Positions 24,402 to 40,280 of a stretch of DNA of 64,000 bases are shown here, piece after piece. Within the stretch, counting starts at the first letter, position 1, and the number at the start of each line of letters is the position of its first letter. Origin of the DNA: Candidatus Bathyarchaeia archaeon (lineage in GTDB: Archaea > Thermoproteota > Bathyarchaeia > 40CM-2-53-6); assembly GCA_049517415.1 (NCBI GenBank), contig JBEKSC010000001.1, positions 32,001 to 96,000 on the forward strand, in the 5' to 3' direction. A program made the translations under genes and the position numbers. The notes below the pieces were generated by a model. The model saw only the letters and a list, made by a program, of their open reading frames with translations. It did no database searches and was not told the DNA's origin.

Positions 24402-25037
24402 ATGAAGTTCAACGTGCCTTACTATGCGCAGAGCTCGGATTTCACTTGCGGCCCCGCCTGCGTGTTAATGGTAATGAAACATTTCGAACGGGACCTTGAA
24501 ATCGGCCGCGAACTTGAATTTGAGGTGTGGCGCCAATGCAACATGATTGGCATAAAGGGTGCTGACCCGTTCGGACTCTCTGTGCCGTTAATCGACTCAG
24601 GCTACGACGTGCGGCTGATAACGCAGCGCAGTAGGACAGTTAACTACGATGCATGGAAACGGAGGTTGCTCAGGATTTTCTCGTCCGAAGAGATCGAACT
24701 CAGTATATTCGGTATGAAGGAAAACCGACAGAGAGCCCTCAGGAGGAGATTGCCGGTCACGTACAAACGGCCCGTCGTTGCGGATATCTTGCGAGGAGTT
24801 CGTGGTAATCAAGTTCCTATAGCCCTTGTGCATATGGGGGTCATACACTCGCTCAATATTCCCCATTGGGTCGTTGTAACCGACGCTGATGAAGAGTTCG
24901 TCGTTTTCAACGACCCCTACCCACCAAAGGGGCGAAAAGGACTCAGGCTCTCCCACGTTAAATTCCAGAAAATTCTCGACGACATTGGGACGAGGATAGG
25001 GCTAAGCCCGTCGATTCTGTTCGTTAAGAAACGGTAG
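24402..25037 (+). CDS. Peptidase C39-like protein (DUF3335-like)
   Basis: YYAQSSDFTCGPAC (Q..C), PHWVVV (His) and NDP (Asp) catalytic triad. Confidence 0.8.
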   Translation: MKFNVPYYAQSSDFTCGPACVLMVMKHFERDLEIGRELEFEVWRQCNMIGIKGADPFGLSVPLIDSGYDVRLITQRSRTVNYDAWKRRLLRIFSSEEIELSIFGMKENRQRALRRRLPVTYKRPVVADILRGVRGNQVPIALVHMGVIHSLNIPHWVVVTDADEEFVVFNDPYPPKGRKGLRLSHVKFQKILDDIGTRIGLSPSILFVKKR

Positions 25038-25120: not shown

Positions 25121-26824
25121 ATGGACTTGACGATTCGGCTAGCAGGAGAATCAGGCGACGGCGTCATACTTGCGGGCGAAGTCCTAACATACGCTGTCTC
25201 ACGGATGGGACTGAAAATATTCACTTTTCGAACATATCCTTCATCGGTTCGCGGCGGCCCATGCATGTATCAGCTGAGGGTCAGCGACTGGCATGCTTAC
25301 TCTCAAGGTGACATGCTTGATCTTCTCGTGGCATTCGACACCGAAGCCATTTCCACTCATCTAAAAGACATGAAGCCTGCCGGGGAACTCATCTTCGACG
25401 CAGATCGAACCCCGAAGACTTATTCATCATTACCTAAGCATTCGTTCGGTGTTCCCTTCACGTCCCTCGCCAAAAACCAGGTTGCTTTTCCAAAAGCCAA
25501 GAACATGATCGTGGCAGGATACACGGCCAGCCACGTAGGCATCTCGAAAACCATCTTGGAGGAGGTTGTGAAAGGGAAGCTTGGTTCGCGAGGAGAGGAA
25601 CTTCTCCAAAGAAACCTTACAGCAGTGAACTTGGGATTTGGCCTAGCGCCAAAAGGGAGAGTTCAGAGCTTTCCAAGGGCAATTGCTAACAAGATCGTTC
25701 TTTCAGGCAATCAGGCGATAGTGTTAGGCGCGATTGCGGTCGGTTGCCGTTTCTACGCGGGCTACCCCATCACCCCTGCGAGCGACATTCTTGAGGGCAT
25801 GTCGAAATTCCTTCCAGATTTCGGAGGTATAGCATTCCAAGGAGAAGATGAGATGGCTTCCCTCGGGGCAGCAATAGGCGCGTCGTTTGCGGGAACAAAG
25901 TCGATGACTGCAACATCAGGTCCAGGCCTTTCGCTCATGACAGAAATGATCGGCATGGCCTCGATGGCTGAAGTGCCTGTAGTGATTGTCGACGCGCAAA
26001 GAGGTGGCCCATCAACGGGTTTGCCCACCAAGACCGAGCAGTCGGACCTTGACCATGCGTTGTATGCTGGCCATGGCGACGTGCCCAGAATAGTTATAGC
26101 TCCCGGAAATGTCGAAGACTGCTTCTATCAAACCGTAAGAGCATTCAACCTAGCTGAGCGATACCAGCTCCCAGTTCTTCTCCTTACAGATCAATCACTA
26201 GCTCAACTCACCGAGGGCATGCCTATGCCCGACCTGAAGGCGATAAAAACAATTGACCGAGAAAGAGCGGAAATCGTTGGCAACCGTTTCCGAAGATACG
26301 CGGTCACACACGATGGAATATCACCTATGTCGATACCGGGACAGGCCAACGGGGAATATATTGCTGAAAGTGTTGAGCATGATGAAGATAGTCGACCGAG
26401 CTACCGGCCGCAGGTGCATTCTGAAATGACAGCAAAACGTTTTCGAAAACTTGAAACCGCAGCTATTGAACTTGCGAACGACCCACTAAACGTGAAGGAA
26501 TTACCAGACTCCAAAGCTAAGATTGGTGTAATTGGTTGGGGTTCGACCCAAGGTGCAATCCATGACGCCGTCTTGCGCGCCAGAAGGAACATGATACAGG
26601 TGCGCTGGTTGCAATGCAAGCTCCTAAACCCACTACCCAAAGAACAAATCTCCACCTTCCTCAAAGGCCTCAAGAAAGTCTTGGTTCCGGAACTGAATTA
26701 CTCCGCGCAATTTGCGAAATTGCTCCGACTTAACTTTGCCATCGAGCTAGTTTCCATCAACAAATCCGAAGGGCTACCGTTCACACCAAACGAGATTCTG
26801 CGCAAAATCGAGGAGGTGGCATAA
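25121..26824 (+). CDS. 2-oxoacid:ferredoxin oxidoreductase alpha subunit (gamma-alpha fusion)
   Basis: GESGDG..RGG gamma domain; YPITP, EDE, TSGPG and QRGGPSTGLPT motifs. Confidence 0.93.
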   Translation: MDLTIRLAGESGDGVILAGEVLTYAVSRMGLKIFTFRTYPSSVRGGPCMYQLRVSDWHAYSQGDMLDLLVAFDTEAISTHLKDMKPAGELIFDADRTPKTYSSLPKHSFGVPFTSLAKNQVAFPKAKNMIVAGYTASHVGISKTILEEVVKGKLGSRGEELLQRNLTAVNLGFGLAPKGRVQSFPRAIANKIVLSGNQAIVLGAIAVGCRFYAGYPITPASDILEGMSKFLPDFGGIAFQGEDEMASLGAAIGASFAGTKSMTATSGPGLSLMTEMIGMASMAEVPVVIVDAQRGGPSTGLPTKTEQSDLDHALYAGHGDVPRIVIAPGNVEDCFYQTVRAFNLAERYQLPVLLLTDQSLAQLTEGMPMPDLKAIKTIDRERAEIVGNRFRRYAVTHDGISPMSIPGQANGEYIAESVEHDEDSRPSYRPQVHSEMTAKRFRKLETAAIELANDPLNVKELPDSKAKIGVIGWGSTQGAIHDAVLRARRNMIQVRWLQCKLLNPLPKEQISTFLKGLKKVLVPELNYSAQFAKLLRLNFAIELVSINKSEGLPFTPNEILRKIEEVA

Positions 26825-26825
26825 G

Positions 26826-27656
26826 TTGGCCGCCATGGTTAGCGATTATCGAAGCAGTTACACTTCATCGTGGTGCCCAGGTTGCGGAGACTATGGTGTC
26901 CTGAAGTCTGTTGACATGGCTTTTCACGAGCTTGGTTTGAAAAACGAGGATATCATCATAGTCTCAGGAATTGGATGTAATGGCCGCTTCCCGCATAACT
27001 TCAGAACCTATGGCTTCCACACACTTCACGGCCGAGTATTACCAATCGCACAAGGCATCAACATGACCAGGCCCAGCCTTTGTGTCGTTGGGATTGCTGG
27101 CGACGGCGACGCCTTTGCTATCGGAGGAGGCCATGTTCCGCATGCGGCCAGAAGAAACCCCGACATAGCATACATCGTCCTCGACAATGGCATATATGGG
27201 CAAACCAAAGGCCAACCTTCGCCCACAACACCGCTTGGATACAAGACTAAGGTGACACCTGAAGGAAATCAAGAGGACCCAATTGACATAAGTCAATTGG
27301 CCTTGGCATATGGCGTTTCATTCTTGGCGCGAGGATTCCCAGGAAAGCCCACCCACCTCGCACACCTGATAGCCCAAGGTATAACACACAAGGGTTTCGC
27401 GTTGATACATGTGCTTAACCCCTGCCCTACCTTCCACGACACATGGCAAGAGCTGGCACCTAAAGTCATCGAGACGGGCTCGGAGCATGACTCGGCTGAC
27501 TTGGATGCGGCTTGGAAACTTGTCAGAAGACGTGACAAGATTCCAGTAGGTGTAATATTCAAACAGAATCGCTCCACTCTAGCGGAGCGCGTCAAAGCCT
27601 CGGCCCGGACTCCTGCGGAACTGGAATTGAAGGAATTGCTCAAATCCTTTAGGTAG
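26826..27656 (+). CDS. 2-oxoacid:ferredoxin oxidoreductase beta subunit
   Basis: WCPGCG, SGIGC, HGR, GDGD..NGIYGQTKGQ and PCPT motifs. Confidence 0.93.
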   Translation: MAAMVSDYRSSYTSSWCPGCGDYGVLKSVDMAFHELGLKNEDIIIVSGIGCNGRFPHNFRTYGFHTLHGRVLPIAQGINMTRPSLCVVGIAGDGDAFAIGGGHVPHAARRNPDIAYIVLDNGIYGQTKGQPSPTTPLGYKTKVTPEGNQEDPIDISQLALAYGVSFLARGFPGKPTHLAHLIAQGITHKGFALIHVLNPCPTFHDTWQELAPKVIETGSEHDSADLDAAWKLVRRRDKIPVGVIFKQNRSTLAERVKASARTPAELELKELLKSFR

Positions 27657-27770
27657 GTCCAACTCGGAGAAGATGCAAGTATCCTCCCGATCCCGAGAAA
27701 TGTCTAACGCATCATGAACAGGACACTGCATATTGACCTTCATCTCATCAGACATCGTTACCGAGAAGGA

Positions 27771-27911
27771 TCAACCACCCATCGTCGGGCTAGGTGGGCA
27801 ATGCGTACATACCTCAAGGGGACCAGACCCGCAGATCGTACATACCTCGCACTCATCATCACCGTACGTGCTTTTGCATTCCGCGCATCTCCCAATCGTG
27901 TTTTCCGCCAA
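27771..27911 (-). CDS. Small 7-Cys protein B (46 aa), not in ORF track
   Basis: TTG start after GGGGGTGG SD-like sequence: MAENTIGRCAECKSTYGDDECEVCTICGSGPLEVCTHCPPSPTMGG. Confidence 0.75.
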   Translation of the reverse strand: MAENTIGRCAECKSTYGDDECEVCTICGSGPLEVCTHCPPSPTMGG

Positions 27912-27941
27912 ACTATTCCACCCCCACTCTCCTTTTGATCA

Positions 27942-28169
27942 TTAATTCGGTCGTCCGTGCGAACGTCTCAGGCCAAGATCGCAGTGCAGGCATGGCGTGA
28001 ACTTGGTTGTTCCGCAACGCGAGCATTGATCACACTTTTGATTCCAATATTCGTAGCAGTTTTCACAACGACTTAGGACTGATGGGGCGCGCACAGGTCC
28101 AATCCGATCATCAGCGCCCGGTTCACGGGTTTCGAATTGGAGAGCCCCTTCAGTGCGCCTAGAGTCTAT
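27942..28169 (-). CDS. Small 7-Cys protein A (75 aa from ATA, or 50 aa from GTG 28094), not in ORF track
   Basis: GGAGGTGA SD (28176-28183) sits 6 nt before ATA. Product ...VLSRCENCYEYWNQKCDQCSRCGTTKFTPCLHCDLGLRRSHGRPN has the same Cys pattern as the neighbouring ORF. Confidence 0.75.
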   Translation of the reverse strand: MDSRRTEGALQFETREPGADDRIGPVRAPSVLSRCENCYEYWNQKCDQCSRCGTTKFTPCLHCDLGLRRSHGRPN

Positions 28170-28184
28170 GCTCGTTCACCTCCT

Positions 28185-28748
28185 TCATCTATCAGCTATT
28201 AGCTCCAAAACTTCCGCTGTGTCTGATGCGAGTTCGACGCCCCTCTGGAAGGCTCTGCAGTTCAGGTCGGCTGCCTTGGCGTACCTGGCCAGAATTGCTG
28301 CTTGCAGGGACTCAATGCTCACGACATGGGTTCTCGCTGCCAGAAAGCCTAGAATAACTATGTTCGCGACGACACGCTTTCCCAGTTCTTCAGCGATGCT
28401 GAGTGCGGGGACTGAAAATAATTTACGCTCTTGCACTGGACAGGTGTCAATCATTCCCTTTTCAACGATTATCGTGGCATCTGGTTGTGTGCTCTTCCAG
28501 TTGTCGTTAAATCCGTCTTGCGACATAGCCACTAGGATGTTCGGGCGTATGACGAGTGGGTAGTCGATGGGTTCGTCTGATATGATGAGGTCTGCTCTGG
28601 ACCATCCGCCGGTTATGTATGGGCTGTAATCCTCAGTCATCACGACTTCTTTTCGTTCGCGAATAGATGCAGCTTCCCCAATGAGGCGGCCAGCGGAGAT
28701 TATGCCTTGACCTCCCAGCCCGTGCAGCCGGACCTCACATCTCGTCAT
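28185..28748 (-). CDS. korC: 2-oxoglutarate-type ferredoxin oxidoreductase gamma subunit
   Basis: GLGGQG, YSPYITGGWSRAD and ANIVILG motifs; overlaps the beta subunit stop. Confidence 0.9.
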   Translation of the reverse strand: MTRCEVRLHGLGGQGIISAGRLIGEAASIRERKEVVMTEDYSPYITGGWSRADLIISDEPIDYPLVIRPNILVAMSQDGFNDNWKSTQPDATIIVEKGMIDTCPVQERKLFSVPALSIAEELGKRVVANIVILGFLAARTHVVSIESLQAAILARYAKAADLNCRAFQRGVELASDTAEVLELIADR

Positions 28749-29617
28749 TTCGACCGGCTCACCGCCTTTTCGATCGCTTCACGTTCAACTTCGTGATACG
28801 TAGGTTTCTTGATATCGACGAAGTTACCTACGACAATTGGGTCGGGGGGCTTCATTGTAAGGGCGATCTTGCTGAGGTCTGCCTTATCGTCCACTCGTGA
28901 GCAGGTCCTGAAGTATTGCATCATGGCTAGGGCATCCTCGAAGTTGTTCAAGTCTCCAAAGGTGGGAGGGCACGGAGAGACAATTTCCACGAATGCTAAA
29001 CCCTGAACTTGAAATGCCCTCAACATAGCTTTCAGTAATTGCCTTACGTGTAGCGCAGTCCATCTGGCCACGAATGGCGCTCCAGCTGCGGCAACCATGT
29101 ACGGTATGTTGAAGGAAGCTTCGAAATTGCCGTAGGGAGTTGTAGCTGTCTTCGCCCCCGTCGGCGTAGTCGCGCCGAACTGCCCGCCTGTCATCCCGTA
29201 ATTGAAATTGTTCACACAGAAGATATTCAGGTCGACGTTTCGTCGAATGGCATGTATTAGGTGATTGCCACCTATGTTAAACAGGTCCCCGTCTCCCGAG
29301 ATGACTGTTACCTCAAGTTCGGGATTCGCAACCTTCATGCCCGTGGCAACCGCAATAGCTCTTCCATGGGTCGTGTGATAGGTGTCCAAGTTCAAGTAGC
29401 CGGGAATCCTAGATGTACAGCCAATTCCTGAAACGACCACATGTCTGTCCTGCGGAATTCCCGAACTTCTAATAGCCTCAACTAGACAGCCAGTTACAAT
29501 TCCCAGGCCGCATCCTGGGCACCAGATGTGTGGTAACCTGTCAGCTCGCAACATTTCGTCTCTAGGGTTGGTGAGTTTCACCGTTTCGAATTCGCTGTTG
29601 GCCTCAAGTTGAGCCAT
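28745..29617 (-). CDS. korB: 2-oxoglutarate-type ferredoxin oxidoreductase beta subunit
   Basis: PHIWCPGCG, HTTHGRA and GDGD..GGNH..NNFNYGMTGGQ motifs. Confidence 0.92.
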   Translation of the reverse strand: MAQLEANSEFETVKLTNPRDEMLRADRLPHIWCPGCGLGIVTGCLVEAIRSSGIPQDRHVVVSGIGCTSRIPGYLNLDTYHTTHGRAIAVATGMKVANPELEVTVISGDGDLFNIGGNHLIHAIRRNVDLNIFCVNNFNYGMTGGQFGATTPTGAKTATTPYGNFEASFNIPYMVAAAGAPFVARWTALHVRQLLKAMLRAFQVQGLAFVEIVSPCPPTFGDLNNFEDALAMMQYFRTCSRVDDKADLSKIALTMKPPDPIVVGNFVDIKKPTYHEVEREAIEKAVSRSK

Positions 29618-29621
29618 TCCT

Positions 29622-30761
29622 CTATACCTCCAAAGCCGCGTAGATTTTCTCGGGAGGAATTAAAGCCCCAACAGGATAGTGGACGCCTACCACGGGACAT
29701 TCCGCGAATTCTCTAACCAGATGTTCCATCTGGCCGTAGTTGACCTCGGGGACAATCATTCTCTTAGATTTCGCGCTGAGTTTTTCAATTTCCCTATGTG
29801 GAAAAGGCCATGGCGTAATCAACCTAAGAAGTCCAACCTTCTTGCCCCGCTGTCTAGCCTCATTGACGGCGCGGAGCGCCGACCTAGACGTTGAACCATA
29901 GGCTACAATGACTACTTCCGCATCATCGGTCAGGTAATGTTCGACTTCTACTATGTCGTCTAGGTGATTCAGGATTTTCCCGATTAAATGATTCAGCATT
30001 CTTTCAGAAACAGCGTTGTCCAAGGATGGATATCCGCGTTCATCATGTGTGAGACTATCAACATTGACGTGAAAGCCCTCACCAGCCACAGCCATGGGTG
30101 GGTAATCTTGGGCGAAATCGAAGGGTATGAAATTCGGCTCAGACTTGGATAGTTTCTTCCGATTGACCACCTCTATGTCTTCTGGGGGAGGTATCACAAG
30201 CTTGCTTGTCATGTGGCCTACCACTTGGTCGGCCATCAGGAAAGTCGGGGTCCTATATTTTTCGGCCATGTTGAAGGTTTTGATCGTAAGGTCAAACATC
30301 TCTTGGACGCTGTTTGGTGAATAAGCAATAATCTCGTAGTCTCCGTGAGATCCCCATCGAGCTTGCATCATGTCTCCTTGTCCAATGAGAGTTGGAATTC
30401 CCGTGCTTGGGCCCGCTCTTTGAACATTAACGATGACGCATGGGGTTTCGGTGATTACGCCTAATCCTATGTTCTCCATCATCAGGGAGAATCCCGGCCC
30501 TGATGTTGCCGTCATGCTCTTGACGCCTGCATTCGACGCCCCGATGACTGCAGCTATGCTGCCGATTTCGTCTTCCATCTGAAGGTAGTGCCCTCCGACC
30601 TGCGGCAAACGTTTGCTCATGTATTCTGCTATCTCTGAAGACGGAGTGATCGGATACCCTCCGAAGAATCGACAGCCCGCGGCGATAGCCCCCTCTGCGC
30701 AGGCCAGGTTTCCGGACATGAAGAATTCGCGACTTTGCCCTCGCATAGTCACAGGTCTCAC
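29622..30761 (-). CDS. korA: 2-oxoglutarate-type ferredoxin oxidoreductase alpha subunit (start uncertain, 30746-30845)
   Basis: GYPITPS, QMEDE, TSGPGFSLM and QARWGSHGD motifs. Confidence 0.92.
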   Translation of the reverse strand: MRPVTMRGQSREFFMSGNLACAEGAIAAGCRFFGGYPITPSSEIAEYMSKRLPQVGGHYLQMEDEIGSIAAVIGASNAGVKSMTATSGPGFSLMMENIGLGVITETPCVIVNVQRAGPSTGIPTLIGQGDMMQARWGSHGDYEIIAYSPNSVQEMFDLTIKTFNMAEKYRTPTFLMADQVVGHMTSKLVIPPPEDIEVVNRKKLSKSEPNFIPFDFAQDYPPMAVAGEGFHVNVDSLTHDERGYPSLDNAVSERMLNHLIGKILNHLDDIVEVEHYLTDDAEVVIVAYGSTSRSALRAVNEARQRGKKVGLLRLITPWPFPHREIEKLSAKSKRMIVPEVNYGQMEHLVREFAECPVVGVHYPVGALIPPEKIYAALEV

Positions 30762-30899
30762 CTTGCCTCCAGATGACAAATGGTGTTTTACAGACGAACC
30801 GGATTTCTGTAAATACGTACCTTCGTTTGTGCGTTTAATATGCATAGTATTTACTCAAAGAACTATCTCTATATTTAGAATAAAACGGAGAACGTCGAA

Positions 30900-31304
30900 G
30901 TGAGGCTTCCCCCATTGAGCAACATCGCTCAGCAGGTAGACCGCACACTTGAGCGGGTTACAGCGGGGACTGTTACGACGGGATTTGTGAGGGAATGGAG
31001 CCCTCCTAGACCATCTAGGATACCTCTCTCACCCCAACAGAAGTTGAAGCTCCGAGACGTCGACGTTATCCTAATCGACGACAGATGCAAGGGATGCACT
31101 TACTGCATAGAGTTTTGCCCACGAAAGGTGTTCGAGCAAGGCAAGAAGCTCAACCAGATTGGAATCCATCCGCCCCGGATCAAGGACAGCTCATTGTGTG
31201 TCGGATGTGGCGTCTGCGAAGAGATCTGCCCTGATTTCGCCATTTTCTTAGTGGATAAGGGAAGCTCACTGAAAAATAGGAAGATTATATCAGAGGAAAA
31301 ATGA
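30900..31304 (+). CDS. korD: 2x[4Fe-4S] ferredoxin, KorD-like delta subunit (true start may be downstream)
   Basis: CKGCTYCIEFCP and CVGCGVCEEICPDFAI. Confidence 0.85.
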   Translation: MRLPPLSNIAQQVDRTLERVTAGTVTTGFVREWSPPRPSRIPLSPQQKLKLRDVDVILIDDRCKGCTYCIEFCPRKVFEQGKKLNQIGIHPPRIKDSSLCVGCGVCEEICPDFAIFLVDKGSSLKNRKIISEEK

Positions 31305-32003
31305 ATGGACGCTGAAAAACCGAACTCGAATTTAGCAGTCTACGTCTTTGGTAAGCAGTACCGCGTTCCAGAAAACCTGACTATCCTAACCGCCATGGAA
31401 TCTCTGGGTTACCGGTTACTAAGGGGGTGCGGTTGTCGCAGTGGCTTCTGCGGCGCTTGCGCAACCGTGTATAGAATTCAAGGAGATTACAGGCTGCGAA
31501 CAGGACTCGCATGCCAAACGCCCGTCAAAGACGGAATGGTCTTTTCGATGCTTCCATTCCATCCCGCAACTAAAGCCAAATACAATTTGAAGGAACTACC
31601 GGCAGACCTGTCCTCAATTGTCCGTTTCTATCCTGAGGTGATGAGATGCTTACAGTGCAACACTTGTAGCCGCGCCTGCCCACAGGAACTGCCTGTCATA
31701 GATGTTATCGGGGCCGCGATGCGCGGCGACATCAGCACTGCGGCCGACCTTTCATTCGACTGCATAATGTGCGGCCTCTGCGCCACAAGATGCCCGGCGG
31801 AAATAGTTCAGTACTACGTTGCCATTCTCGCAAGAAGACTGTACGCAGCGCACTTAGCTCCCAAGTCGAAGCACCTTCAAGAACGGCTTCAGCAGATCAG
31901 GAGCGGATTTTTCGACGAGGACCTCGAGCACCTCACCCACCTAAGCACAGCAGAGTTAGCGAAGATGTACAACGCTAGGGAAATCGAAAAGGAGGCAGCA
32001 TAG
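31305..32003 (+). CDS. Fumarate reductase/succinate dehydrogenase-like Fe-S subunit ([2Fe-2S] plus 2x[4Fe-4S])
   Basis: GCRSGFCGAC..LACQ, CLQCNTCSRACP and CIMCGLCATRCP. Confidence 0.85.
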   Translation: MDAEKPNSNLAVYVFGKQYRVPENLTILTAMESLGYRLLRGCGCRSGFCGACATVYRIQGDYRLRTGLACQTPVKDGMVFSMLPFHPATKAKYNLKELPADLSSIVRFYPEVMRCLQCNTCSRACPQELPVIDVIGAAMRGDISTAADLSFDCIMCGLCATRCPAEIVQYYVAILARRLYAAHLAPKSKHLQERLQQIRSGFFDEDLEHLTHLSTAELAKMYNAREIEKEAA

Positions 32004-33680
32004 GTGTCAGTGCAATCTCAGCAATGGCGAACGGTAATCACTTACAGCGAAGAGATGCGACGTTCGATAGACAAAGTTGCCGCCACCCGTAAAGAACGAA
32101 TGAAACAAACATTTCCAAAACTCAAGCCTGAGGAGAAGAAAGCGCTACTCGAAAAGTTCCACCCCGACTACAAGCCTGGCACGACACGGAAACTTCTCGT
32201 CGGAGCGAACAAAGGCGAACCGATCGTCAACGAACTGGGTGAGGTTGTTGAAGCTTACAGCCGCGTGAATCCCGCGAAGATGGACATCTCGAAGGTAGGC
32301 ATTCAAACTGACGTACTAGTCATAGGCGGTGGTGGCGCAGGAGCCGCTTCAGCCTTAGCCGTCCACCAGGAGGGCGCCCAGGTGCTATTGTGCACCAAGC
32401 TAAGGTTCGGCGATTCTAATACGATGATGGCGCAGGGCGGAATTCAAGCGGCTGACAAGGCGAACGATTCACCGGGCACGCACTACCTTGACGTAATGGG
32501 AGGCGGAGGCTACACCAACATACCCAGCCTCGTTCGAACGCTTGTCTCAGACGCCCCCTCGATCATCGAATGGCTTGAAGGCCTAGGCACGATGTTCGAC
32601 AAAGAAGCTGACGGTACTTTCGTCACAATGCACGGAGGCGGAACAAGCAGAAGGCGCATGCACGCGGCCCGAGACTACACGGGCGCAGAAATAATGCGCA
32701 CCCTGCGAGATGAAGTAACCAACCTCGGCATTCAAGTCATCGAATTCTCCCCCGCAATAGAATTGTTAACCGATGAAGAGGGAAACTGCGTCGGCGCCAT
32801 TCTTCTCAACATGGAGACCGATGAGTACACGGTCGTTCGTTCAAAGACGACGATCATAGCAACCGGCGGGTCAGGAAGGCTACACGTCCAAGGCTTCCCA
32901 ACAACTAACCACTACGGCGCGACAGGGGATGGACTTGCACTTGCCTACAGGGCCGGTTGCAAGCTAGCATTCGTAGACACAATCCAATACCACCCCACCG
33001 GCGTAGCATTCCCAGAACTAATCTCCGGGCAGCTCATAACAGAGAAAATGCGGAGCCTAGGCTCCCAACTTGTCAACATAGATGGAGGCCGGTTCGTCAA
33101 CGAACTTGAAACAAGGGATGCTGTTTCTTCAGCCATCATAAGGGAATGTAAGGAAAAGAACAAAGGCGTTCTAACCCCGGGCGGCCTCGTAGGTGTGTGG
33201 CTCGACACGCCGCTCATTGACGAATTGAAAGGGCCCGGCCGAACACAACGCCTCGCCCCTGCTATGGTCCGCCAATTCAAAAGGTTCGGGATCGACATAC
33301 TGAAGGACCCAGTCCTCGTCTACCCAACCCAGCACTACCAGAACGGGGGCGTCCTCATTGACGTAGACGGCCGCACGAACGTCCCGAACTTGTACGTTGC
33401 CGGTGAGGCCTCTGGCGGCGTACATGGAAGAAACCGTTTGATGGGAAACTCGCTGCTTGACATATTGGTCTTCGGCCGACGCGCCGGTATAGACGCCGCC
33501 AAGAAATCAAAAACTTCAGCGGGCGGAAAACCAACTCTCAACCATGTTATTCGTTTTCACAAGGAACTAGTAAAGGCGGGCTACAAGCCGGACCGACACA
33601 GTCCCATCATTCTACCCGACTACCGTAGCAAGGAAGCGAAAATTGAGCTAGAGGCTTTCGCGGTAAAAGGCTGGGAATAA
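32004..33680 (+). CDS. Fumarate reductase/succinate dehydrogenase-family flavoprotein (TfrA-like)
   Basis: GGGGAG FAD motif, AQGG, QYHPTG, ITEKMR, ETRD, HYQNGG and HGRNRLMGNSL. Confidence 0.88.
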   Translation: MSVQSQQWRTVITYSEEMRRSIDKVAATRKERMKQTFPKLKPEEKKALLEKFHPDYKPGTTRKLLVGANKGEPIVNELGEVVEAYSRVNPAKMDISKVGIQTDVLVIGGGGAGAASALAVHQEGAQVLLCTKLRFGDSNTMMAQGGIQAADKANDSPGTHYLDVMGGGGYTNIPSLVRTLVSDAPSIIEWLEGLGTMFDKEADGTFVTMHGGGTSRRRMHAARDYTGAEIMRTLRDEVTNLGIQVIEFSPAIELLTDEEGNCVGAILLNMETDEYTVVRSKTTIIATGGSGRLHVQGFPTTNHYGATGDGLALAYRAGCKLAFVDTIQYHPTGVAFPELISGQLITEKMRSLGSQLVNIDGGRFVNELETRDAVSSAIIRECKEKNKGVLTPGGLVGVWLDTPLIDELKGPGRTQRLAPAMVRQFKRFGIDILKDPVLVYPTQHYQNGGVLIDVDGRTNVPNLYVAGEASGGVHGRNRLMGNSLLDILVFGRRAGIDAAKKSKTSAGGKPTLNHVIRFHKELVKAGYKPDRHSPIILPDYRSKEAKIELEAFAVKGWE

Positions 33681-33681
33681 A

Positions 33682-34077
33682 GTGACGAGCATCCTATCGG
33701 CCGAGTCAATCGGAGGCCCACTGCTCCGCAAGGTGGAGACGATAAGCGGCCAAAACATTTCACTCTGTTACCAGTGCGGAAAATGCTCAGCCACATGCCC
33801 GTTATCCTCACGTATGGATTTGCTTCCCCACCAGATCGTTCGGTACCTGCAGCTTGGCTTTCAGCAAGTTCTTGACGCCAACTCACCCTGGCTCTGCGCG
33901 ACCTGTTTCTCCTGTGAAACTCAGTGCCCCCGAGGCCTAGACGTGAGCAAGATCTGCGAAGCACTCCGCACAATCAAGCTGCGACAAGAACCCTACGAGC
34001 TCAAAATTGAACAGACCTACTCTGAGATACCCCAACAAGGCTTGGTAAGCGCCTACAGGAAACTCAGCTCTTATTGA
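33682..34077 (+). CDS. hdrC: Heterodisulfide reductase subunit C
   Basis: CYQCGKCSATCP and WLCATCFSCETQCPRG. Confidence 0.9.
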   Translation: MTSILSAESIGGPLLRKVETISGQNISLCYQCGKCSATCPLSSRMDLLPHQIVRYLQLGFQQVLDANSPWLCATCFSCETQCPRGLDVSKICEALRTIKLRQEPYELKIEQTYSEIPQQGLVSAYRKLSSY

Positions 34078-34087
34078 GGTAAAAACG

Positions 34088-34975
34088 ATGCAGTCTTACC
34101 TCTACTTCCCAGGATGTTCACTCCGGACTGTGGCAAGGGATTTCGACCGTTCCGCTAAAGCCTGTGCACACGCCCTCGGCTTCGAATTGAAGGAAATGCA
34201 GGGCCAGCTTTGTTGCGGCGCGGTTTTGTCGAACGTGGATGACAACCTCATGACAAAGGCCGGACCGAACCGGATTCTTGCACGAGCGACACAGGAAGAC
34301 AACACCCTCGTGACGCTATGCGCAGGTTGCTACAATGTTCTCAAGAGAACAGACCTACATGCCAAGCTTGCCTCCTCTTCTCAACAAACGATTAACAAAT
34401 TCAACGAAGAAACTTTCAACGGCGGAGTGGACGTCATACATTTTCTGGAAATTCTAAGGGACCGTATTGGTTTCGACGCTGTTGAGAGAGCAGTTAAGGT
34501 TCCTTTCAAAGGACTACAAGTAGGAGCCTACTACGGCTGTCTGCTCCTCCGTCCATCTGGAGAGATGAAGTTTGATGACCCTAACAGGCCTTCAATTCTG
34601 GAGAACCTCCTAACCAGATTGGGTTGCACGCCGATCGACTACCCTGCCAGAACTGATTGTTGCGGTTCGTACCTGAGCGTCAGCTCGCCGGGAAATGTTC
34701 AACCCATCTCGGGGGCCATCATCGGATCCGCCCGTTCGTGCGGAGCTAGGCTGCTAACTGTCAGCTGCCCACTCTGTAAGTACAACCTAGAATCCAGCCA
34801 ACTTCAAGACAGCAGTGGTTCTACTCCCGACGACTTTCTTCCAATCGTCTACTTCACACAACTTCTGGGACTGGCCTTGGGCCTTCAGCCTGAGGAACTG
34901 GAACTTGACCAACGCCAGATGCAGGCAATACGCGAGGCACCAACACCGATGTTGATAGGAGAAGGTAAGAAGTGA
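34088..34975 (+). CDS. hdrB: Heterodisulfide reductase subunit B
   Basis: Two CCG domains: YFPGCS..CCG..CAGC and YYGCLL..CCGS..CPLC. Confidence 0.9.
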   Translation: MQSYLYFPGCSLRTVARDFDRSAKACAHALGFELKEMQGQLCCGAVLSNVDDNLMTKAGPNRILARATQEDNTLVTLCAGCYNVLKRTDLHAKLASSSQQTINKFNEETFNGGVDVIHFLEILRDRIGFDAVERAVKVPFKGLQVGAYYGCLLLRPSGEMKFDDPNRPSILENLLTRLGCTPIDYPARTDCCGSYLSVSSPGNVQPISGAIIGSARSCGARLLTVSCPLCKYNLESSQLQDSSGSTPDDFLPIVYFTQLLGLALGLQPEELELDQRQMQAIREAPTPMLIGEGKK

Positions 34976-36927
34976 AACGAGTTGGTGTGTTCGTTTGCCA
35001 CTGCGGCTTGAACATCGCAGGGAATGTCAACATTAAGGAAGTTGTTGACAAAGCCGGCAAGCAGCAAGACGTAGTGTTCGCTATTGACCACAAGTACCTC
35101 TGCTCTGAACCCGGCCAGACATTGATCAAGGACAGCATAAGGCAACACAATCTGGACGCCATTGTCGTCGCCGCCTGTTCGCCAGCGATGCATGAGGCCA
35201 CCTTCAAGACCATAGCGCAGCTGTCAGGCCTGAACCGATACAACTGCGAAATCGCGAACATTCGAGAACAGAGCAGCTGGGTTACCGACGATCTTGGAAA
35301 GGCCACGGCGAAAGCCCACATCACGGTGCACCAGGGCATACAGAAGGTTAGGCTCAACGAACCACTGCAACCTATCACCGTTCCAGTAACTCGGAAAGTT
35401 CTCGTCATCGGAGGAGGGATTGCAGGCATTCGTGCAGCGCTTGACGTGGCGAATGGCGGTTACCAAGTCTACTTGGTCGAAAAGTCAGGAACGATAGGGG
35501 GAAGAATGGCACAACTCTCCGAAACTTTCCCCACACTTGACTGTTCAACATGTATCCTCGGGCCTTTGATGGTGGAGGTGTTCAGGCACCCGAACATCAA
35601 ACTCCTTAGGCTTTCTAAAGTCGAGGAAGTGAAAGGCTACATTGGCAACTTCAAGGTCAGAGTGCGACAGGAACCAGCGTACGTTGATGAAGCCAAGTGT
35701 AACGCCTGCGGTGAATGCGCGAAAGCCTGCCCCGCTCAAGTTCCTAACGAATTCGACTTCGGTTTGACCTGGAGAAAGGCAATTTATACTCCATTCGCTC
35801 AAGCGGTACCGCCGGCCTACGTTCTCGATGCGAAAAACTGCTTAGGCCTGTTGCCCCAAGCCTGTGGCGAATGCAAGAAAGCGTGCGATAAATTCGGCAC
35901 AAGCTGCATGGACCTTGATGCGTGGCCAAGAATCCATGAGCTTGAAGTAGGAGCAATCATCGTTTCCACGGGATACGAGTTATACGATGCCGCAAAACTG
36001 ACCGAGTACGGCTACGGCATTTTCCCCGACGTTATGACCAGCATGGAATTTGAGCGCATGCTCTCAGCGTCAGGACCGACAACAGGCGAAATCAAACGCC
36101 CATCCGATGGACAGACGCCGAAAGAAATTGTCTTCATCCAATGCGCGGGACAACGCGAACCTGAGACGGCGCTTCCCTACTGTTCGAAAATATGTTGCAT
36201 GTATACGGCTCGACATGCGATGATGTTCAGGCATAAAGTGCCCGATGGCCAGGCGTATGTCTTCTACATGGACATCCGAGCTGGCGGGAAGGGATATGAG
36301 GAATTCGTAAAACGTTGCCAAGAGGAGAAAGGCCTCCTTTACCTCCGCGGGCGAGTTGCCAAAGTCTATGAAGAGAATGGAAAGCTCACCGTTAAGGGCG
36401 TTGATACGCTCAGCGGAAAAACCGTCCAAATTAACGCCGATTTAGTAGTACTTGCGGTCGGGATGGTCCCGAGCTCAGAATCCCACGAGTTGGCGAGCAA
36501 GCTCAAGGCTTCGCTGGACGCGAACGGTTTCTTCTCGGAGGCACACCCCAAGCTTCGACCACTGGAAAGCCCGACGGCGGGGATCTTCCTAGCCGGGGCG
36601 GGACAATCACCCAAAGATATTCCGGAAACTGTAGCACAGGCGAGCGGCGCCGCTGGCAAGGCACTGGACCTCCTTTCAAGCCCAACGCTCGAACGCGAAC
36701 CAACAGTTGCCCGTGTTGTCGGCGAATTGTGCAGCGGATGCAGCATCTGCGTACCCCTATGTCCGTATGATGCGCTTAGCCTGAACGCTGAGAAAATTGC
36801 GGAAGTGTCGGAGGCTCTCTGCGAAGGATGTGGGACCTGCATAGCCTCCTGCCCGTCAGGTGCGCTAACGCTCCGAAATCTCACAGACGAACAGATGGTC
36901 GCAATGATTGAGGCCATAGTCGAATAA
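34972..36927 (+). CDS. hdrA: Heterodisulfide reductase subunit A
   Basis: RVGVFVCHCGLNI, GGGIAG, TFPTLDC, YCSKICC, PKDIP and C-terminal ferredoxin motifs. Confidence 0.96.
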   Translation: MKRVGVFVCHCGLNIAGNVNIKEVVDKAGKQQDVVFAIDHKYLCSEPGQTLIKDSIRQHNLDAIVVAACSPAMHEATFKTIAQLSGLNRYNCEIANIREQSSWVTDDLGKATAKAHITVHQGIQKVRLNEPLQPITVPVTRKVLVIGGGIAGIRAALDVANGGYQVYLVEKSGTIGGRMAQLSETFPTLDCSTCILGPLMVEVFRHPNIKLLRLSKVEEVKGYIGNFKVRVRQEPAYVDEAKCNACGECAKACPAQVPNEFDFGLTWRKAIYTPFAQAVPPAYVLDAKNCLGLLPQACGECKKACDKFGTSCMDLDAWPRIHELEVGAIIVSTGYELYDAAKLTEYGYGIFPDVMTSMEFERMLSASGPTTGEIKRPSDGQTPKEIVFIQCAGQREPETALPYCSKICCMYTARHAMMFRHKVPDGQAYVFYMDIRAGGKGYEEFVKRCQEEKGLLYLRGRVAKVYEENGKLTVKGVDTLSGKTVQINADLVVLAVGMVPSSESHELASKLKASLDANGFFSEAHPKLRPLESPTAGIFLAGAGQSPKDIPETVAQASGAAGKALDLLSSPTLEREPTVARVVGELCSGCSICVPLCPYDALSLNAEKIAEVSEALCEGCGTCIASCPSGALTLRNLTDEQMVAMIEAIVE

Positions 36928-36932
36928 TAGAG

Positions 36933-37373
36933 ATGAACGAATTGGAAGAGCGATTTGAACCGAAAATTGTTGGGTTCTTATGTAGATGGTGCTCGTACGC
37001 CGGAGCCGACTTGGCTGGAACGAGCAGAATCAAGTACCCACCAAACATCAACCCAATACGAGTGAACTGTTCAGGTCGCGTCGACCCCACCCTTGTCATA
37101 AAGGCTCTCGCATCAGGAGCAGACGGAGTACTCATCGCTGGCTGCCACCCAGGCGATTGTCACTACACAAACGGGAACATCAAGACTCTTCGAAGGTTCA
37201 AGCTCCTGCAGAGGCTGCTGGACCAGTTCGGAATAGAACGAGAACGTGTCAGGTTAGAGTGGATCTCCGCTTCGGAGGGCGAAAGGTACGCACGGGTCGT
37301 TAGAGGAATGACGGAGGATATACGATCACTGGGGCCTTTGAATTGGAAGAAGAGAGTGGAGGTATTGGCATGA
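36933..37373 (+). CDS. mvhD: F420-non-reducing hydrogenase subunit D
   Basis: FLCRWCSYAGAD, CSGRVD, GCHPGDCHY and WISASEG. Confidence 0.95.
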   Translation: MNELEERFEPKIVGFLCRWCSYAGADLAGTSRIKYPPNINPIRVNCSGRVDPTLVIKALASGADGVLIAGCHPGDCHYTNGNIKTLRRFKLLQRLLDQFGIERERVRLEWISASEGERYARVVRGMTEDIRSLGPLNWKKRVEVLA

Positions 37374-38326
37374 CGAACCCTAAGATAGCATTCAACTGGG
37401 CAAGCAGTTGCGGCGGATGCGAGATAGCCATACTTGAACTTGGAACTAAACTAGTTGATCTAGCCAACAAGGTTGACATAGTCTTCTGGCCCGCCGCCAT
37501 GGATTATAAGTACTCAGACCTTGAGGCGATGCCAGACGGCAGCATAGATGTCGCATTCATGAATGGCGCAATACAAAACTCCGAAAACGAACACATAGCT
37601 AAACTACTGAGAGCCAAATCCAAACTCCTTGTAGCCTTCGGAACTTGCGCCTACTTAGGCGGCATACCAAGCCTTGCGAACACAACCGACCGCGACGGGA
37701 TCTTCGCAAGCTCCTACAAGGAAACGCCTACGACAGATAACCCTGAAAAAACCTTCCCGCAAACCAAGTGGCAAGCAAGGGAAGGAGAACTAACCATACC
37801 CGAACTCTACAACACCGTCAAAACACTCGACCAAGTCGTGGACGTTGATTACTACGTACCCGGATGCCCACCAGTCGGGGAACAAGTTTCTAAAGTGATC
37901 AGCCTATTCGTCGATGGCCCACTACCGCCGAAGGGAGCAGTTCTAGGAGCCTCCGACAAGTCACTATGCCATGAATGCAAGCGCACCAGGACGGAAAAGA
38001 AGATCAGTAAGATTGTTAGAACTTACGAAACGATCCCTGACTCACAGAAATGCCTGCTTGAACAAGGCATAATCTGCATGGGACCAGCCACCCGGGGAGG
38101 TTGTGGGAGCATATGCCTAGACGCAAACGCGCCCTGCCGCGGCTGCTACGGGCCACTGCCCAAAGCCATTGACCAGGGCGGAAAGATGCTTTCGGCCTTA
38201 TCATCAATCTTCGATGCGCAGAGCGAAGAAGACATTCAGAAGCTCGCGGACTCTGTGCCCGACCCGCTCGGCACATTCTACAGGTTTAGCCTCGCTCGCT
38301 CTCTGCTAAGGAGGACCAAACCATGA
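37370..38326 (+). CDS. mvhG: F420-non-reducing [NiFe] hydrogenase small subunit
   Basis: SCGGC, GTCA, PGCPP, CHEC, CLLEQGIICMGP and CRGCYG. Confidence 0.93.
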   Translation: MTNPKIAFNWASSCGGCEIAILELGTKLVDLANKVDIVFWPAAMDYKYSDLEAMPDGSIDVAFMNGAIQNSENEHIAKLLRAKSKLLVAFGTCAYLGGIPSLANTTDRDGIFASSYKETPTTDNPEKTFPQTKWQAREGELTIPELYNTVKTLDQVVDVDYYVPGCPPVGEQVSKVISLFVDGPLPPKGAVLGASDKSLCHECKRTRTEKKISKIVRTYETIPDSQKCLLEQGIICMGPATRGGCGSICLDANAPCRGCYGPLPKAIDQGGKMLSALSSIFDAQSEEDIQKLADSVPDPLGTFYRFSLARSLLRRTKP

Positions 38327-39783
38327 AAACCGTCACAATCAACCCTGTTACAAGGCTTGAGGGACACGGGAAGATCTCAATCTTCCTTAACGATGAGGGA
38401 AATGTCGAGAACGCCTACTTCCAAGTCCCCGAACTCAGGGGTTTCGAGAAGTTCTGCGAGGGTAGGCCTGTCGAAGAAATGCCCGACATAACCAGCAGAA
38501 TTTGCGGCGTCTGCCCAGAAGCACACCACATAGCCTCCACCAAAGCCCTAGACCAAGTGTTCCATGTAGAACCACCACCAGCCGCGAAGAAACTCAGAGA
38601 ACTCCTATACAGCGCCTTCTTCATAGCCGATCACATAACCCACTTCTACATACTCGCCGGCCCCGACTTCGTGATGGGACCAAGTGCGCCGAAAGCAGAG
38701 CGAAATATTCTCGGCGTAATACGGAAAGTCGGGTTAGAAGTCGGTAGCTCAGTCATCAAACACCGCTCGGACGCACTCGACGTCATTGCGATGATAGGTG
38801 GAAAGAGGATCCACCCAAGCTGCGGCGTCCCCGGTGGGGTCAGCAAACCCATTACGGAAGACGAGAGAGCCAGAATCGAATCGATCGCAAAATCCGAAGT
38901 TGAATTCGCAAAGTTCACAATGAAACTGTTCGACGACATAGTTCTGAAGAACAAAGATTACGTTGACCTCATTACAAGCGACAATTACGCAACAGAAACA
39001 TATTGCATGGGTACGGTCGACGAACAGAACCACGTAAACTTCTACGATGGAAAGATCAGGGTTGTGGATCCGGAAGGCCACGAGTTTGCAAAGTTTCCAG
39101 CAGCCGACTACCAGCAGTACATCTCGGAGCATGTGGAACCGTGGACCTACCTCAAATTCCCCTACCTCAAGAAGATCGGATGGAAAGGGCTGGTAGGAGG
39201 CAAGGATAGTGGCGTTTACAAAGCGACCCCACTCGCCCGCCTCAACGTATCGGAAGGGATGGCTACTCCAACAGCACAAGCAGAATACAAGAGGTTGTAC
39301 GAGACATTAGGCCAGAAGCCAGTTCACTCAACTTTGGCTACGCATTGGGCTCGCCTGGTCGAACTTGTATACGCTTCGGAGCGCCTGGTACAACTTAGCC
39401 AAGACCCCGACATCACAAACCCGAACGTTCGAAACATCCCGACCCAAACACCAGATGAAGGTGTGGGAGCGGTCGAAGCGCCCCGCGGAACACTCTTCCA
39501 CCACTACAAGACGGATGCGAAAGGCATGGTGAAGAACGTGAACCTCATAGTGGCAACGACCAACAACCATGCGGCAATCAGCATGTCGATTAAGCAAGCC
39601 GCTGAGGGATTCATCAAGAAAGGGGAAGTATCCGACGGGATTCTGAACATGGTCGAGATGGCCTTCAGGGCTTACGACCCATGCTACGCCTGCGCAACCC
39701 ACACCCTACCAGGCCAGATGCCCCTCGACATTAACATCTACAACAAAAACAGGGCAATCCTTCACAACATACGAAGGCCGTAG
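38323..39783 (+). CDS. mvhA: [NiFe] hydrogenase large subunit (group 3c, Mvh)
   Basis: TRLEGH, L1 RICGVC, EAPRG, and L2 DPCYACATH followed by a C-terminal extension. Confidence 0.95.
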   Translation: MKTVTINPVTRLEGHGKISIFLNDEGNVENAYFQVPELRGFEKFCEGRPVEEMPDITSRICGVCPEAHHIASTKALDQVFHVEPPPAAKKLRELLYSAFFIADHITHFYILAGPDFVMGPSAPKAERNILGVIRKVGLEVGSSVIKHRSDALDVIAMIGGKRIHPSCGVPGGVSKPITEDERARIESIAKSEVEFAKFTMKLFDDIVLKNKDYVDLITSDNYATETYCMGTVDEQNHVNFYDGKIRVVDPEGHEFAKFPAADYQQYISEHVEPWTYLKFPYLKKIGWKGLVGGKDSGVYKATPLARLNVSEGMATPTAQAEYKRLYETLGQKPVHSTLATHWARLVELVYASERLVQLSQDPDITNPNVRNIPTQTPDEGVGAVEAPRGTLFHHYKTDAKGMVKNVNLIVATTNNHAAISMSIKQAAEGFIKKGEVSDGILNMVEMAFRAYDPCYACATHTLPGQMPLDINIYNKNRAILHNIRRP

Positions 39784-39791
39784 AATCGTTC

Positions 39792-40280
39792 ATGAGACCG
39801 GGGCTGAGCCATACGACCATTTTGCTTGTAGGCCTCGGTAACCCCATAATGGGTGACGATGCAGTAGGAATTCATGTAGTGAGAATACTAAAGGATAGGA
39901 ATCGCGGACGAGAAGATTTGGAGTTCAAGGAATTGAGCCTCGGCGGCCTTGGACTGGTTGAAGAGATATTGGGCTATGAACGCGTTTTCATTATAGACTC
40001 AGTTGCTTCAACCGGGACGGTTGGCAAGATCTGTGAATTCTCGCCAGAGCATTTCAAAGGCACAGAATACGCATCGTCCCCGCATTCCACGAATTTTGCC
40101 ACAGCCCTAGAACTTTTCAAGAGATTCGAAAACAGTGCGGTTCCCCATACGATTAGAATCTTCACAATCGACATCAACCCTGAATTTACTTTCCGCGAGG
40201 CCCTTAGCCCGCCTGTACAGAGAGCAGCCTTTGAATTAGCTGAGTTAGTTGGAAACGAAATAGACCAGATTCGAAATTGA
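39792..40280 (+). CDS. Hydrogenase maturation protease
   Basis: GLGNPIMGDDAVG, IIDS and SPH motifs; directly follows mvhA. Confidence 0.92.
   Translation: MRPGLSHTTILLVGLGNPIMGDDAVGIHVVRILKDRNRGREDLEFKELSLGGLGLVEEILGYERVFIIDSVASTGTVGKICEFSPEHFKGTEYASSPHSTNFATALELFKRFENSAVPHTIRIFTIDINPEFTFREALSPPVQRAAFELAELVGNEIDQIRN

Follow-up and report, generated by a model that had tools for sequence, protein, structure and literature searches.

An unnamed family of seven-cysteine mini-proteins often encoded beside 2-oxoacid:ferredoxin oxidoreductase genes in one genus of Bathyarchaeia

Two mini-genes behind korC

The window, the whole stretch analyzed here, comprises 64,000 nucleotides of contig JBEKSC010000001.1 (forward-strand positions 32,001 to 96,000) from a Candidatus Bathyarchaeia archaeon, assembly GCA_049517415.1. 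The genes for three subunits of a 2-oxoacid:ferredoxin oxidoreductase (OFOR), korABC, are followed in it by two short open reading frames, ORF A and ORF B (Table 1). An earlier note, made from the letters alone, had placed two seven-cysteine ORFs at this spot, where they lie on the minus strand, and the motif cores and cysteine counts that it gave agree with ours. The core is RCENC-x7-CDQCSRCG-x6-CLHC in ORF A and RCAEC-x8-CEVCTICG-x6-CTHC in ORF B, both proteins have seven cysteines, and they share the pattern CxxC-x7/8-CxxCxxCG-x6-CxHC. In a profile-profile comparison, they match with a probability of 96.6 (E value, 6e-10).

Table 1. Positions in the window of the two mini-genes, their translation signals, and the neighboring oxidoreductase genes
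Feature	Position	Strand	Details
ORF A, A-type 7-Cys+His mini-protein	27942..28169	minus	75 aa from ATA 28169; 50 aa from GTG 28094
ORF B, B-type 7-Cys+His mini-protein	27771..27911	minus	46 aa; TTG start; acidic; C terminus CPPSPTMGG
Shine-Dalgarno-like GGAGGTGA of ORF A, perfect	28176..28183	minus	6 nt 5' of ATA
Shine-Dalgarno-like GGGGGTGG of ORF B	27918..27925	minus	6 nt 5' of TTG
korC, OFOR gamma subunit	28185..28748	minus	PF01558, NF006323
korB, OFOR beta subunit	28745..29617	minus	PF02775, NF007207
korA, OFOR alpha subunit	29622..30845	minus	PF01855; NF006412 above cut-off
Second OFOR at the locus, two subunits	25121..27656	plus	alpha 25121-26824, beta 26826-27656; TIGR03710 and TIGR02177 above cut-off
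KorD-like 2[4Fe-4S] ferredoxin	30900..31304	plus	PF00037; NF042987 E 4e-17, below cut-off

The two-subunit OFOR converges on ORF B, ends 114 nt from its stop codon, and is a recurring neighbor in the genus, as judged by synteny. Between it and a thiL-like gene lies, in many genomes of the genus, a DUF3335 peptidase C39-like gene (24402-25037, plus strand). The KorD-like, delta-like ferredoxin gene is divergent from korABC and points away from it, a layout that is repeated at L093, L095, and L140. It opens a plus-strand cluster (30900-40280) whose first products are, by Pfam and NCBIfam, the ferredoxin, an Fe-S protein, and a fumarate-reductase-like flavoprotein; the later ORFs resemble HdrC/B/A and Mvh subunits by eye only. 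A 58-aa ORF located 3' of ORF B (27755-27579) was considered as a further gene and rejected, as it is disrupted in every ortholog checked. An Rfam scan gave no match.

Shine-Dalgarno (SD)-like sites precede both ORFs, as the earlier note had it, and that of ORF A begins 1 nt beyond the korC stop codon (28187-28185); a TGA inside it is in frame with ORF A and sets its upstream bound. Within the family described below, exact GGAGGTGA stands 5' of 13 of the 19 A genes and 17 of the 29 B genes (30/48 together) and of 1/9 C genes. Perfect SD sites are rare in the genome (G000): in a control limited to canonical starts, only 4 of 1752 long ORFs had the exact site and 43 had it with one mismatch. Six nucleotides past the exact SD, the 13 A genes that have it read ATA (2), GTA (5), CTG (1), or GTG (5). 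In ORF A it is ATA, and no canonical start lies beside the SD; the sole in-frame canonical start, a GTG nine codons before Cys1, is not kept in orthologs, and the A gene at L019 lacks any canonical start in frame. Leaders of 28, 31, 34, and 35 codons are all in frame in A genes, and differences between the ORF A leader and those of two orthologs fall mostly on third codon positions (8/5/18 and 8/4/17), an excess that is not seen against a distant ortholog. We infer from these patterns that ORF A is probably initiated at ATA. A perfect SD combined with a weak start (ATA, GTA, CTG, or TTG) would give low or regulated output, and that output would come from the tail of a well-expressed operon.

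Two peculiarities of ORF B that the earlier note had pointed out are present here but do not characterize its relatives. The EVCT repeat, with the 12-mer GAGGTATGTACG at 27804 and again at 27837, is incidental in our reading, since the 12-mer occurs once in the closest ortholog and is absent from four others. The C-terminal GG is found in only 17 of the 29 B-type proteins, whereas 27/29 end in Gly.

That these ORFs might be chance readings or shadows of other genes is suggested by their small size, their unusual start codons, and the single called cluster that matches them. The strict seven-Cys motif, however, occurs in three ORFs of the genome (the looser one in four) and in none in each of five whole-genome shuffles (mononucleotide, within 1-kb blocks), in line with the earlier claim that so specific a shared motif is unlikely to arise by chance; 59 family sequences have been collected as well. 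Synonymous differences exceed nonsynonymous ones in both subtypes, with a mean pS of 0.78 versus a pN of 0.21 for B genes (210 pairs, 21 sequences) and 0.82 versus 0.25 for A genes (105 pairs, 15 sequences). Among close, unsaturated pairs, dN/dS is 0.00-0.23 for A (8/105 pairs unsaturated) and 0.06-0.40 for B (10/210), and 15 of 16 Cys/His columns use both Cys codons. The A and B genes are under purifying selection; dN/dS ratios this far under 1 already refute the reading as chance ORFs, which we consider virtually excluded. ORF A and ORF B are real, conserved genes.

Of the 8 RNA-library runs, 6 have contigs over the mini-genes, and 5 of the 6 studies are represented among them. The contigs are 90-96% alike and thus stem from relatives. 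In three runs a contig bridges the junction between korC and ORF A (X2, 27440-28634; X4, 27507-28344; X5, 27663-28325). Such contigs carry neither strand nor level and may include DNA, so they fit co-transcription without proving it; together with an SD placed 1 nt past the korC stop, they make co-transcription of ORF A with korC likely, as the earlier note had proposed. Runs X1 and X7 leave the mini-genes without cover, and in every run contigs are sparse over the convergent OFOR and the genes that precede it; gaps in contigs are no evidence either way.

A family confined to one genus, with OFORs as frequent neighbors

The family has three subtypes, A, B, and C, and five copies in this genome. 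A pattern search yielded 57 distinct intact genes (19 A, 29 B, 9 C), and a hidden Markov model collected 59 members; 58 of these have the terminal CxHC, and the remaining one is frameshifted. The seven cysteines and the histidine are invariant in a 29-row alignment of A and B proteins. Cys2 is missing from one B copy and Cys6 from one C copy. The C subtype has lost one N-terminal Cys and gained one C-terminal Cys, so that seven Cys and the His are kept. Non-Cys residues are also kept, and they differ between subtypes: B has GRCAEC...CPPS, and A has YWN...PCxHCD. On a tree of 54 peptides, A (support, 100/100) and C (98/96) are set apart from B; the tree is built on few columns and leaves most forks within B unsettled.

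A profile built from both the A and B types gave matches in 22 of 23 genomes of a single Bathyarchaeia genus; the remaining 378 genomes of the class sample, 36 of them from the same taxonomic family, gave none, and a broader profile did not change this range in substance. Beyond the GTDB genomes, the range rests on a search of 1.84 billion representative proteins, which returned 26 matches. Among the 19 of these that were inspected, 13 have the full motif, 1 is degenerate, and 5 are unrelated repeat proteins, and the sole taxon-labeled one is a hypothetical protein of Bathyarchaeia. A locus search with ORF A found three related loci. A 401-genome sample of the phylum gave 25 weak partial matches outside this genome, at E values between 7e-5 and 1e-3. 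Most of them fall in ORFs of 1100-1280 aa, whose size suggests reverse gyrase; three matches from this sample were inspected and are not members. The sister genera gave two matches at an E value of 0.002, both within longer ORFs. The family has no name and is restricted to one genus among the genomes searched. No paper describing it was found in a literature search whose coverage left out most subscription journals; according to the available text of PMC2253796, the supplements to that paper list small zinc-finger candidates, not for these genomes, and may bear on novelty. The genome also encodes a second unnamed family of small Cys-rich proteins, with three near-identical copies (C4:134334-134573, C12:75353-75562, C34:19611-19868) of the form CEHLMANK...CGECG...CxxCxVMFCKNC...H.

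We mapped 40 loci and scanned 66 of the 166 neighbor clusters. An OFOR gene adjoins 24 of 29 B loci, and three kinds of 2-oxoacid:ferredoxin oxidoreductase are involved: B follows porB at 12/29 loci and korC at 5/29, and at 7/29 it faces a convergent OFOR beta gene, in four of these cases after idh-aclBA. The remaining 5/29 lie away from OFOR slots. Fewer A loci occupy such slots (8/19: four after korC, three after etfAB, one other), and at one of the eight, the OFOR itself is missing; the other 11 are beside ubiA-, lysE-, or other genes. Off the OFOR slots, the neighbors at A and B loci include ubiA-, lysE-, and pflX-like genes. Genes of the C subtype stand at the head of operons, directly 5' of acetyl-CoA synthetase in 6/12 cases and 5' of an M3 peptidase or rtcB in 4/12. 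Two OFOR operons of this genome (C23 and C29) have no family gene alongside. Judging from the tree, perhaps two or three ancestral placements lie behind the link to OFORs, so the neighbor counts are not independent.

These neighborhoods bear on two proposals of the earlier note. A role specific to the Kor/Hdr system is not supported, given the preference of B for porB over korC, and the spread of A, B, and C neighbors links the family with OFORs and acyl-CoA metabolism at large rather than with Kor by itself. The heterodimer that the note had suggested is unlikely to be an obligate one because only 6 of the 19 A genes stand in tandem with a B gene; in addition, two genomes (G022, 95% complete, and G015, 92%) have B and no intact A that we could find.

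Several other observations were made at these loci. In G014, the two-subunit OFOR is internally deleted, with alpha residues 1-69 joined to beta residues 248-276 (L004:1753-2055), and A and B are intact. In G001, a single case, the OFOR is absent from its slot and the B gene there lacks Cys2 (L134; L037:1676-1810). ATP-citrate lyase genes lie beside a different OFOR in four genomes (L123, L127, L128, L013), in three of them as idh-aclBA; this OFOR has a beta subunit of 435-440 aa and aconitase nearby, which hints at a possible reverse-TCA-type cluster in Bathyarchaeia. Rieske-like and cytochrome-b-like genes, recognized by eye, stand 5' of porCDAB in this genome (L001:1401-3718), a hint of respiratory capacity. 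An actin-family protein (PF00022; E value, 1.5e-14) is encoded near A-type and JAB-domain genes in G019 and G016 (L142:4670-5938). At L002:12947-14571, a NucC-like ORF converges with a nucleotidyltransferase-like ORF, presumably resembling a CBASS-type pair.

Predicted metal sites and known small zinc proteins

The earlier note had read the ligands as seven cysteines, which each protein does have, and had overlooked the histidine of CxHC, near invariant at 58/59 members. With eight conserved ligands, two tetrahedral sites are the simplest arrangement. Site 1 would be formed by Cys1, Cys2, Cys4, and Cys5 as the knuckle pair of a zinc ribbon (CxxC-x10-CxxCG), and site 2 would be formed by Cys3, Cys6, the His, and Cys7. 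We favor the ribbon pairing for site 1 because the weak outside matches mostly use those cysteines; profile positions 2-28 are the part matched in 20/25 non-genus matches. Other weak matches favor different pairings: the CxxCxxC-x7-C region of alcohol dehydrogenase (ADH), which is a structural zinc site, RBX2, and the C-terminal finger of GRXCR (CxxC-x7-CxxC). The metal is probably zinc, given that the proteins fit neither a ferredoxin motif nor a ferredoxin profile and that delta ferredoxins have genes of their own.

None of the outside sequence matches is significant (E values of 0.008 or worse). In Pfam and NCBIfam, ORF A and ORF B gave only weak matches (E values of 0.04-0.34); across 31 members, the best Pfam E value was 0.0083, for the double zinc ribbon PF12773, matched by 4/31 members, ORF A and ORF B not among them. 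A PDB sequence search gave a best E value of 0.09, to rubredoxins. The first ESM Atlas matches scored 0.90 (an unnamed cluster of 47-aa proteins, 138/256 features) and 0.79. No family in Pfam, NCBIfam, PDB, or the Atlas fits ORF A or ORF B. Two AlphaFold2 models were both of low confidence (pLDDT, 57.5) and have short helices over Cys1-Cys2 and no ribbon; Foldseek found no structural match.

The broadest class into which the proteins fall is that of the archaeal CPxCG-related small zinc fingers, defined in PMC2253796 as proteins of fewer than 100 residues in which a CPxCG-like pattern, CxxCG included, pairs with a Cys/His pattern at a distance of 7-40 residues, and which escape the Prosite Fe-S filters PS00198 and PS00202; the class is put there at ∼8% of small archaeal proteins. 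ORF A (75 aa) and ORF B (46 aa) are below the length limit and have the required pairing (CxxC, 10-11 residues, CxxCG), and a minority of family members fail the corresponding regular expression. The two proteins therefore formally fit this broad class as putative zinc proteins; in Haloferax, 9 of 14 C(P)XCG proteins bind zinc and 5 are zinc free, according to PMC11241148. Brz, HVO_0758, and HVO_2753 (PMC2253796, PMC10716476, and PMC11241148) are likewise shorter than 100 aa, with CxxCG and a second CxxC, and proteins of this class have also been overlooked by annotation and adjoin genes that they possibly affect. Unlike them, our family has seven Cys and a His, a central CxxCxxC, a CxHC end, and a range of one genus. 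None of 31 members matches HVO_2753_ZBP in Pfam, and an Atlas score of 0.78 is a lead only. The earlier note had named a match to a well-characterized family, such as an ordinary zinc ribbon, as evidence against its reading; the CPxCG definition covers the two ORFs, but the class is loose and no characterized family matches. Its description of them as novel metal-binding mini-proteins stands in so far as they are conserved and without a family match, with metal binding predicted.

Narrower classes share single traits with the family. The RanBP2-type finger of PDB 2k1p aligns without gaps (E value, 0.12) and has identical C-x2-C-x10-C-x2-C spacing of Cys1, Cys2, Cys4, and Cys5, but it lacks Cys3 and the CxHC tail. 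RanBP2 fingers have a conserved Trp two residues before Cys1 and an Asn four residues after Cys2, and both are absent from the family alignments. The same goes for spacing and tail in three small proteins that we take to be RpoE''/Spt4-like (L069, L073, L076), which have CxxC-x10-CxxC, lack Cys3 and the CxHC tail, and are weak partial matches. Double zinc ribbons have two predicted metal sites, as does our family, but are built from four separate CxxC knuckles, whereas the family has seven Cys and a His; membership in PF12773 was rejected for want of a clear profile match. Membership in the rubredoxins, which have two CxxCG knuckles ∼30 residues apart in ∼52 aa, was rejected as well, since only one knuckle aligns.

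Candidate roles

In the reading that we prefer, at a probability of roughly 45%, A and B are genus-restricted genes whose products fold around two zincs and act as small noncatalytic helpers or regulators of 2-oxoacid oxidoreductases and other acyl-CoA enzymes. B would act by binding another protein, for which the oxidoreductase is the likeliest candidate, and would tune or protect it; through the zinc-thiolate core, this interaction could respond to redox or metal state. B is acidic, and B proteins keep a hydrophobic tail, conserved and ending in Gly in all but two of 29, features that fit a protein partner better than a nucleic acid. Purely functional analogies can be found in small extra proteins of other energy-metabolism complexes: five-subunit pyruvate:ferredoxin oxidoreductases (PFORs) of Aquifex and Hydrogenobacter have an epsilon subunit of unknown role (PMC13768988, available text), and MtrR of Methanosarcina is a precedent for a small archaeal protein that tunes an energy complex (PMC13370731, available text).

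The earlier note leaned toward an Fe-S or redox function. In such a scheme, the proteins would be Fe-S or rubredoxin-type electron carriers, or cluster-assembly factors, for the oxidoreductases, with the central CxxCxxC holding a cluster together with a distal Cys or His. The CxxCxxC run beside OFOR genes is a real likeness to bacterial-type [4Fe-4S] ferredoxins and OFOR delta subunits, the neighbors are ferredoxin-linked enzymes, B has a Pro after its last Cys, the best PDB sequence matches are rubredoxins, albeit over one knuckle, and five-subunit PFORs with an epsilon subunit exist. However, the classic CxxCxxCxxxCP is missing, as the note itself had observed, 0/31 members have a Fer4-type Pfam match, 0/59 fit a PS00198-like pattern, and Gly follows the third Cys rather than the second. 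A core of ∼35 residues is also small for two Fe-S clusters. Por operons have their own delta ferredoxin and Kor has the adjacent delta-like gene, both encoded separately from the mini-genes. The electron carrier is not supported, and the scheme as a whole appears unlikely. A nucleic-acid-binding regulator, acting on transcription or mRNA fate of its own operon, strikes us as similarly doubtful. RanBP2-type fingers, whose spacing the family shares, bind RNA, the core of A keeps aromatic and basic residues, the C subtype is found at operon heads, and Brz offers a precedent as a small zinc finger that regulates its neighbor gene (PMC2253796, available text). Against this, ORF B has 2 Lys and Arg versus 7 Asp and Glu, the Trp and Asn of RanBP2 fingers are lacking, and the upstream operons vary among genomes.

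Seven cysteines in ∼35 residues, multiple copies per genome, and varied neighbors would also suit a metallothionein-like metal or thiol redox buffer with no specific partner, whose place at the end of strong operons would serve mainly co-expression with oxygen-sensitive metalloenzymes; the fixed spacing and the non-Cys residues conserved by subtype suggest specific surfaces and make a buffer improbable. More improbable still is a radical-SAM thioether RiPP precursor or a SAMP/ThiS-like carrier activated at its C-terminal Gly. The variable leader before the Cys-rich core of A, the terminal Gly of most B proteins, and an orphan TIGR04084 radical SAM/SPASM protein in this genome (L194:745-1869, on C8; above cut-off, no precursor seen) speak for it. 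No maturase, though, adjoins any of the mapped loci in the clusters scanned, where the only adjacent radical SAM protein, at two B loci, is PflX-like and without SPASM; the usual RiPP pattern is the reverse of the conserved core and variable leader seen here. As for a Gly carrier, GG is present in barely more than half of the B proteins, and 46 aa are too short for a beta-grasp fold, to which no Pfam match points.

A bolder version of the preferred helper or regulator reading would make B an unrecognized small subunit or switch of archaeal OFORs with a new binuclear seven-Cys-plus-His fold, in which one metal or Fe-S site is labile and senses redox state or oxygen; in this genus, B would act as a gate or a shield for Por, Kor, and the related acyl-CoA enzymes, and its output would be set by the perfect SD and the ATA, GTA, or CTG starts. 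Taken jointly, these elements are improbable. A 2026 review, in its available text, calls the subunit composition of OFORs incompletely understood (PMC13768988).

What is new is a mini-protein family without a name, whose ligand pattern is absent from every library searched and whose metabolic neighborhood is clear; against its weight stand the ∼100 small ORFs with paired CxxC motifs in this genome and the restriction to one genus. The A and B proteins are small enough for synthesis, which makes metal and fold cheap to test, and the perfect SD sites before ATA, GTA, and CTG are a testable case of noncanonical initiation in archaea. If B binds oxidoreductases, it would be a new point of control over central carbon flux, in a group of uncultured archaea that is abundant.
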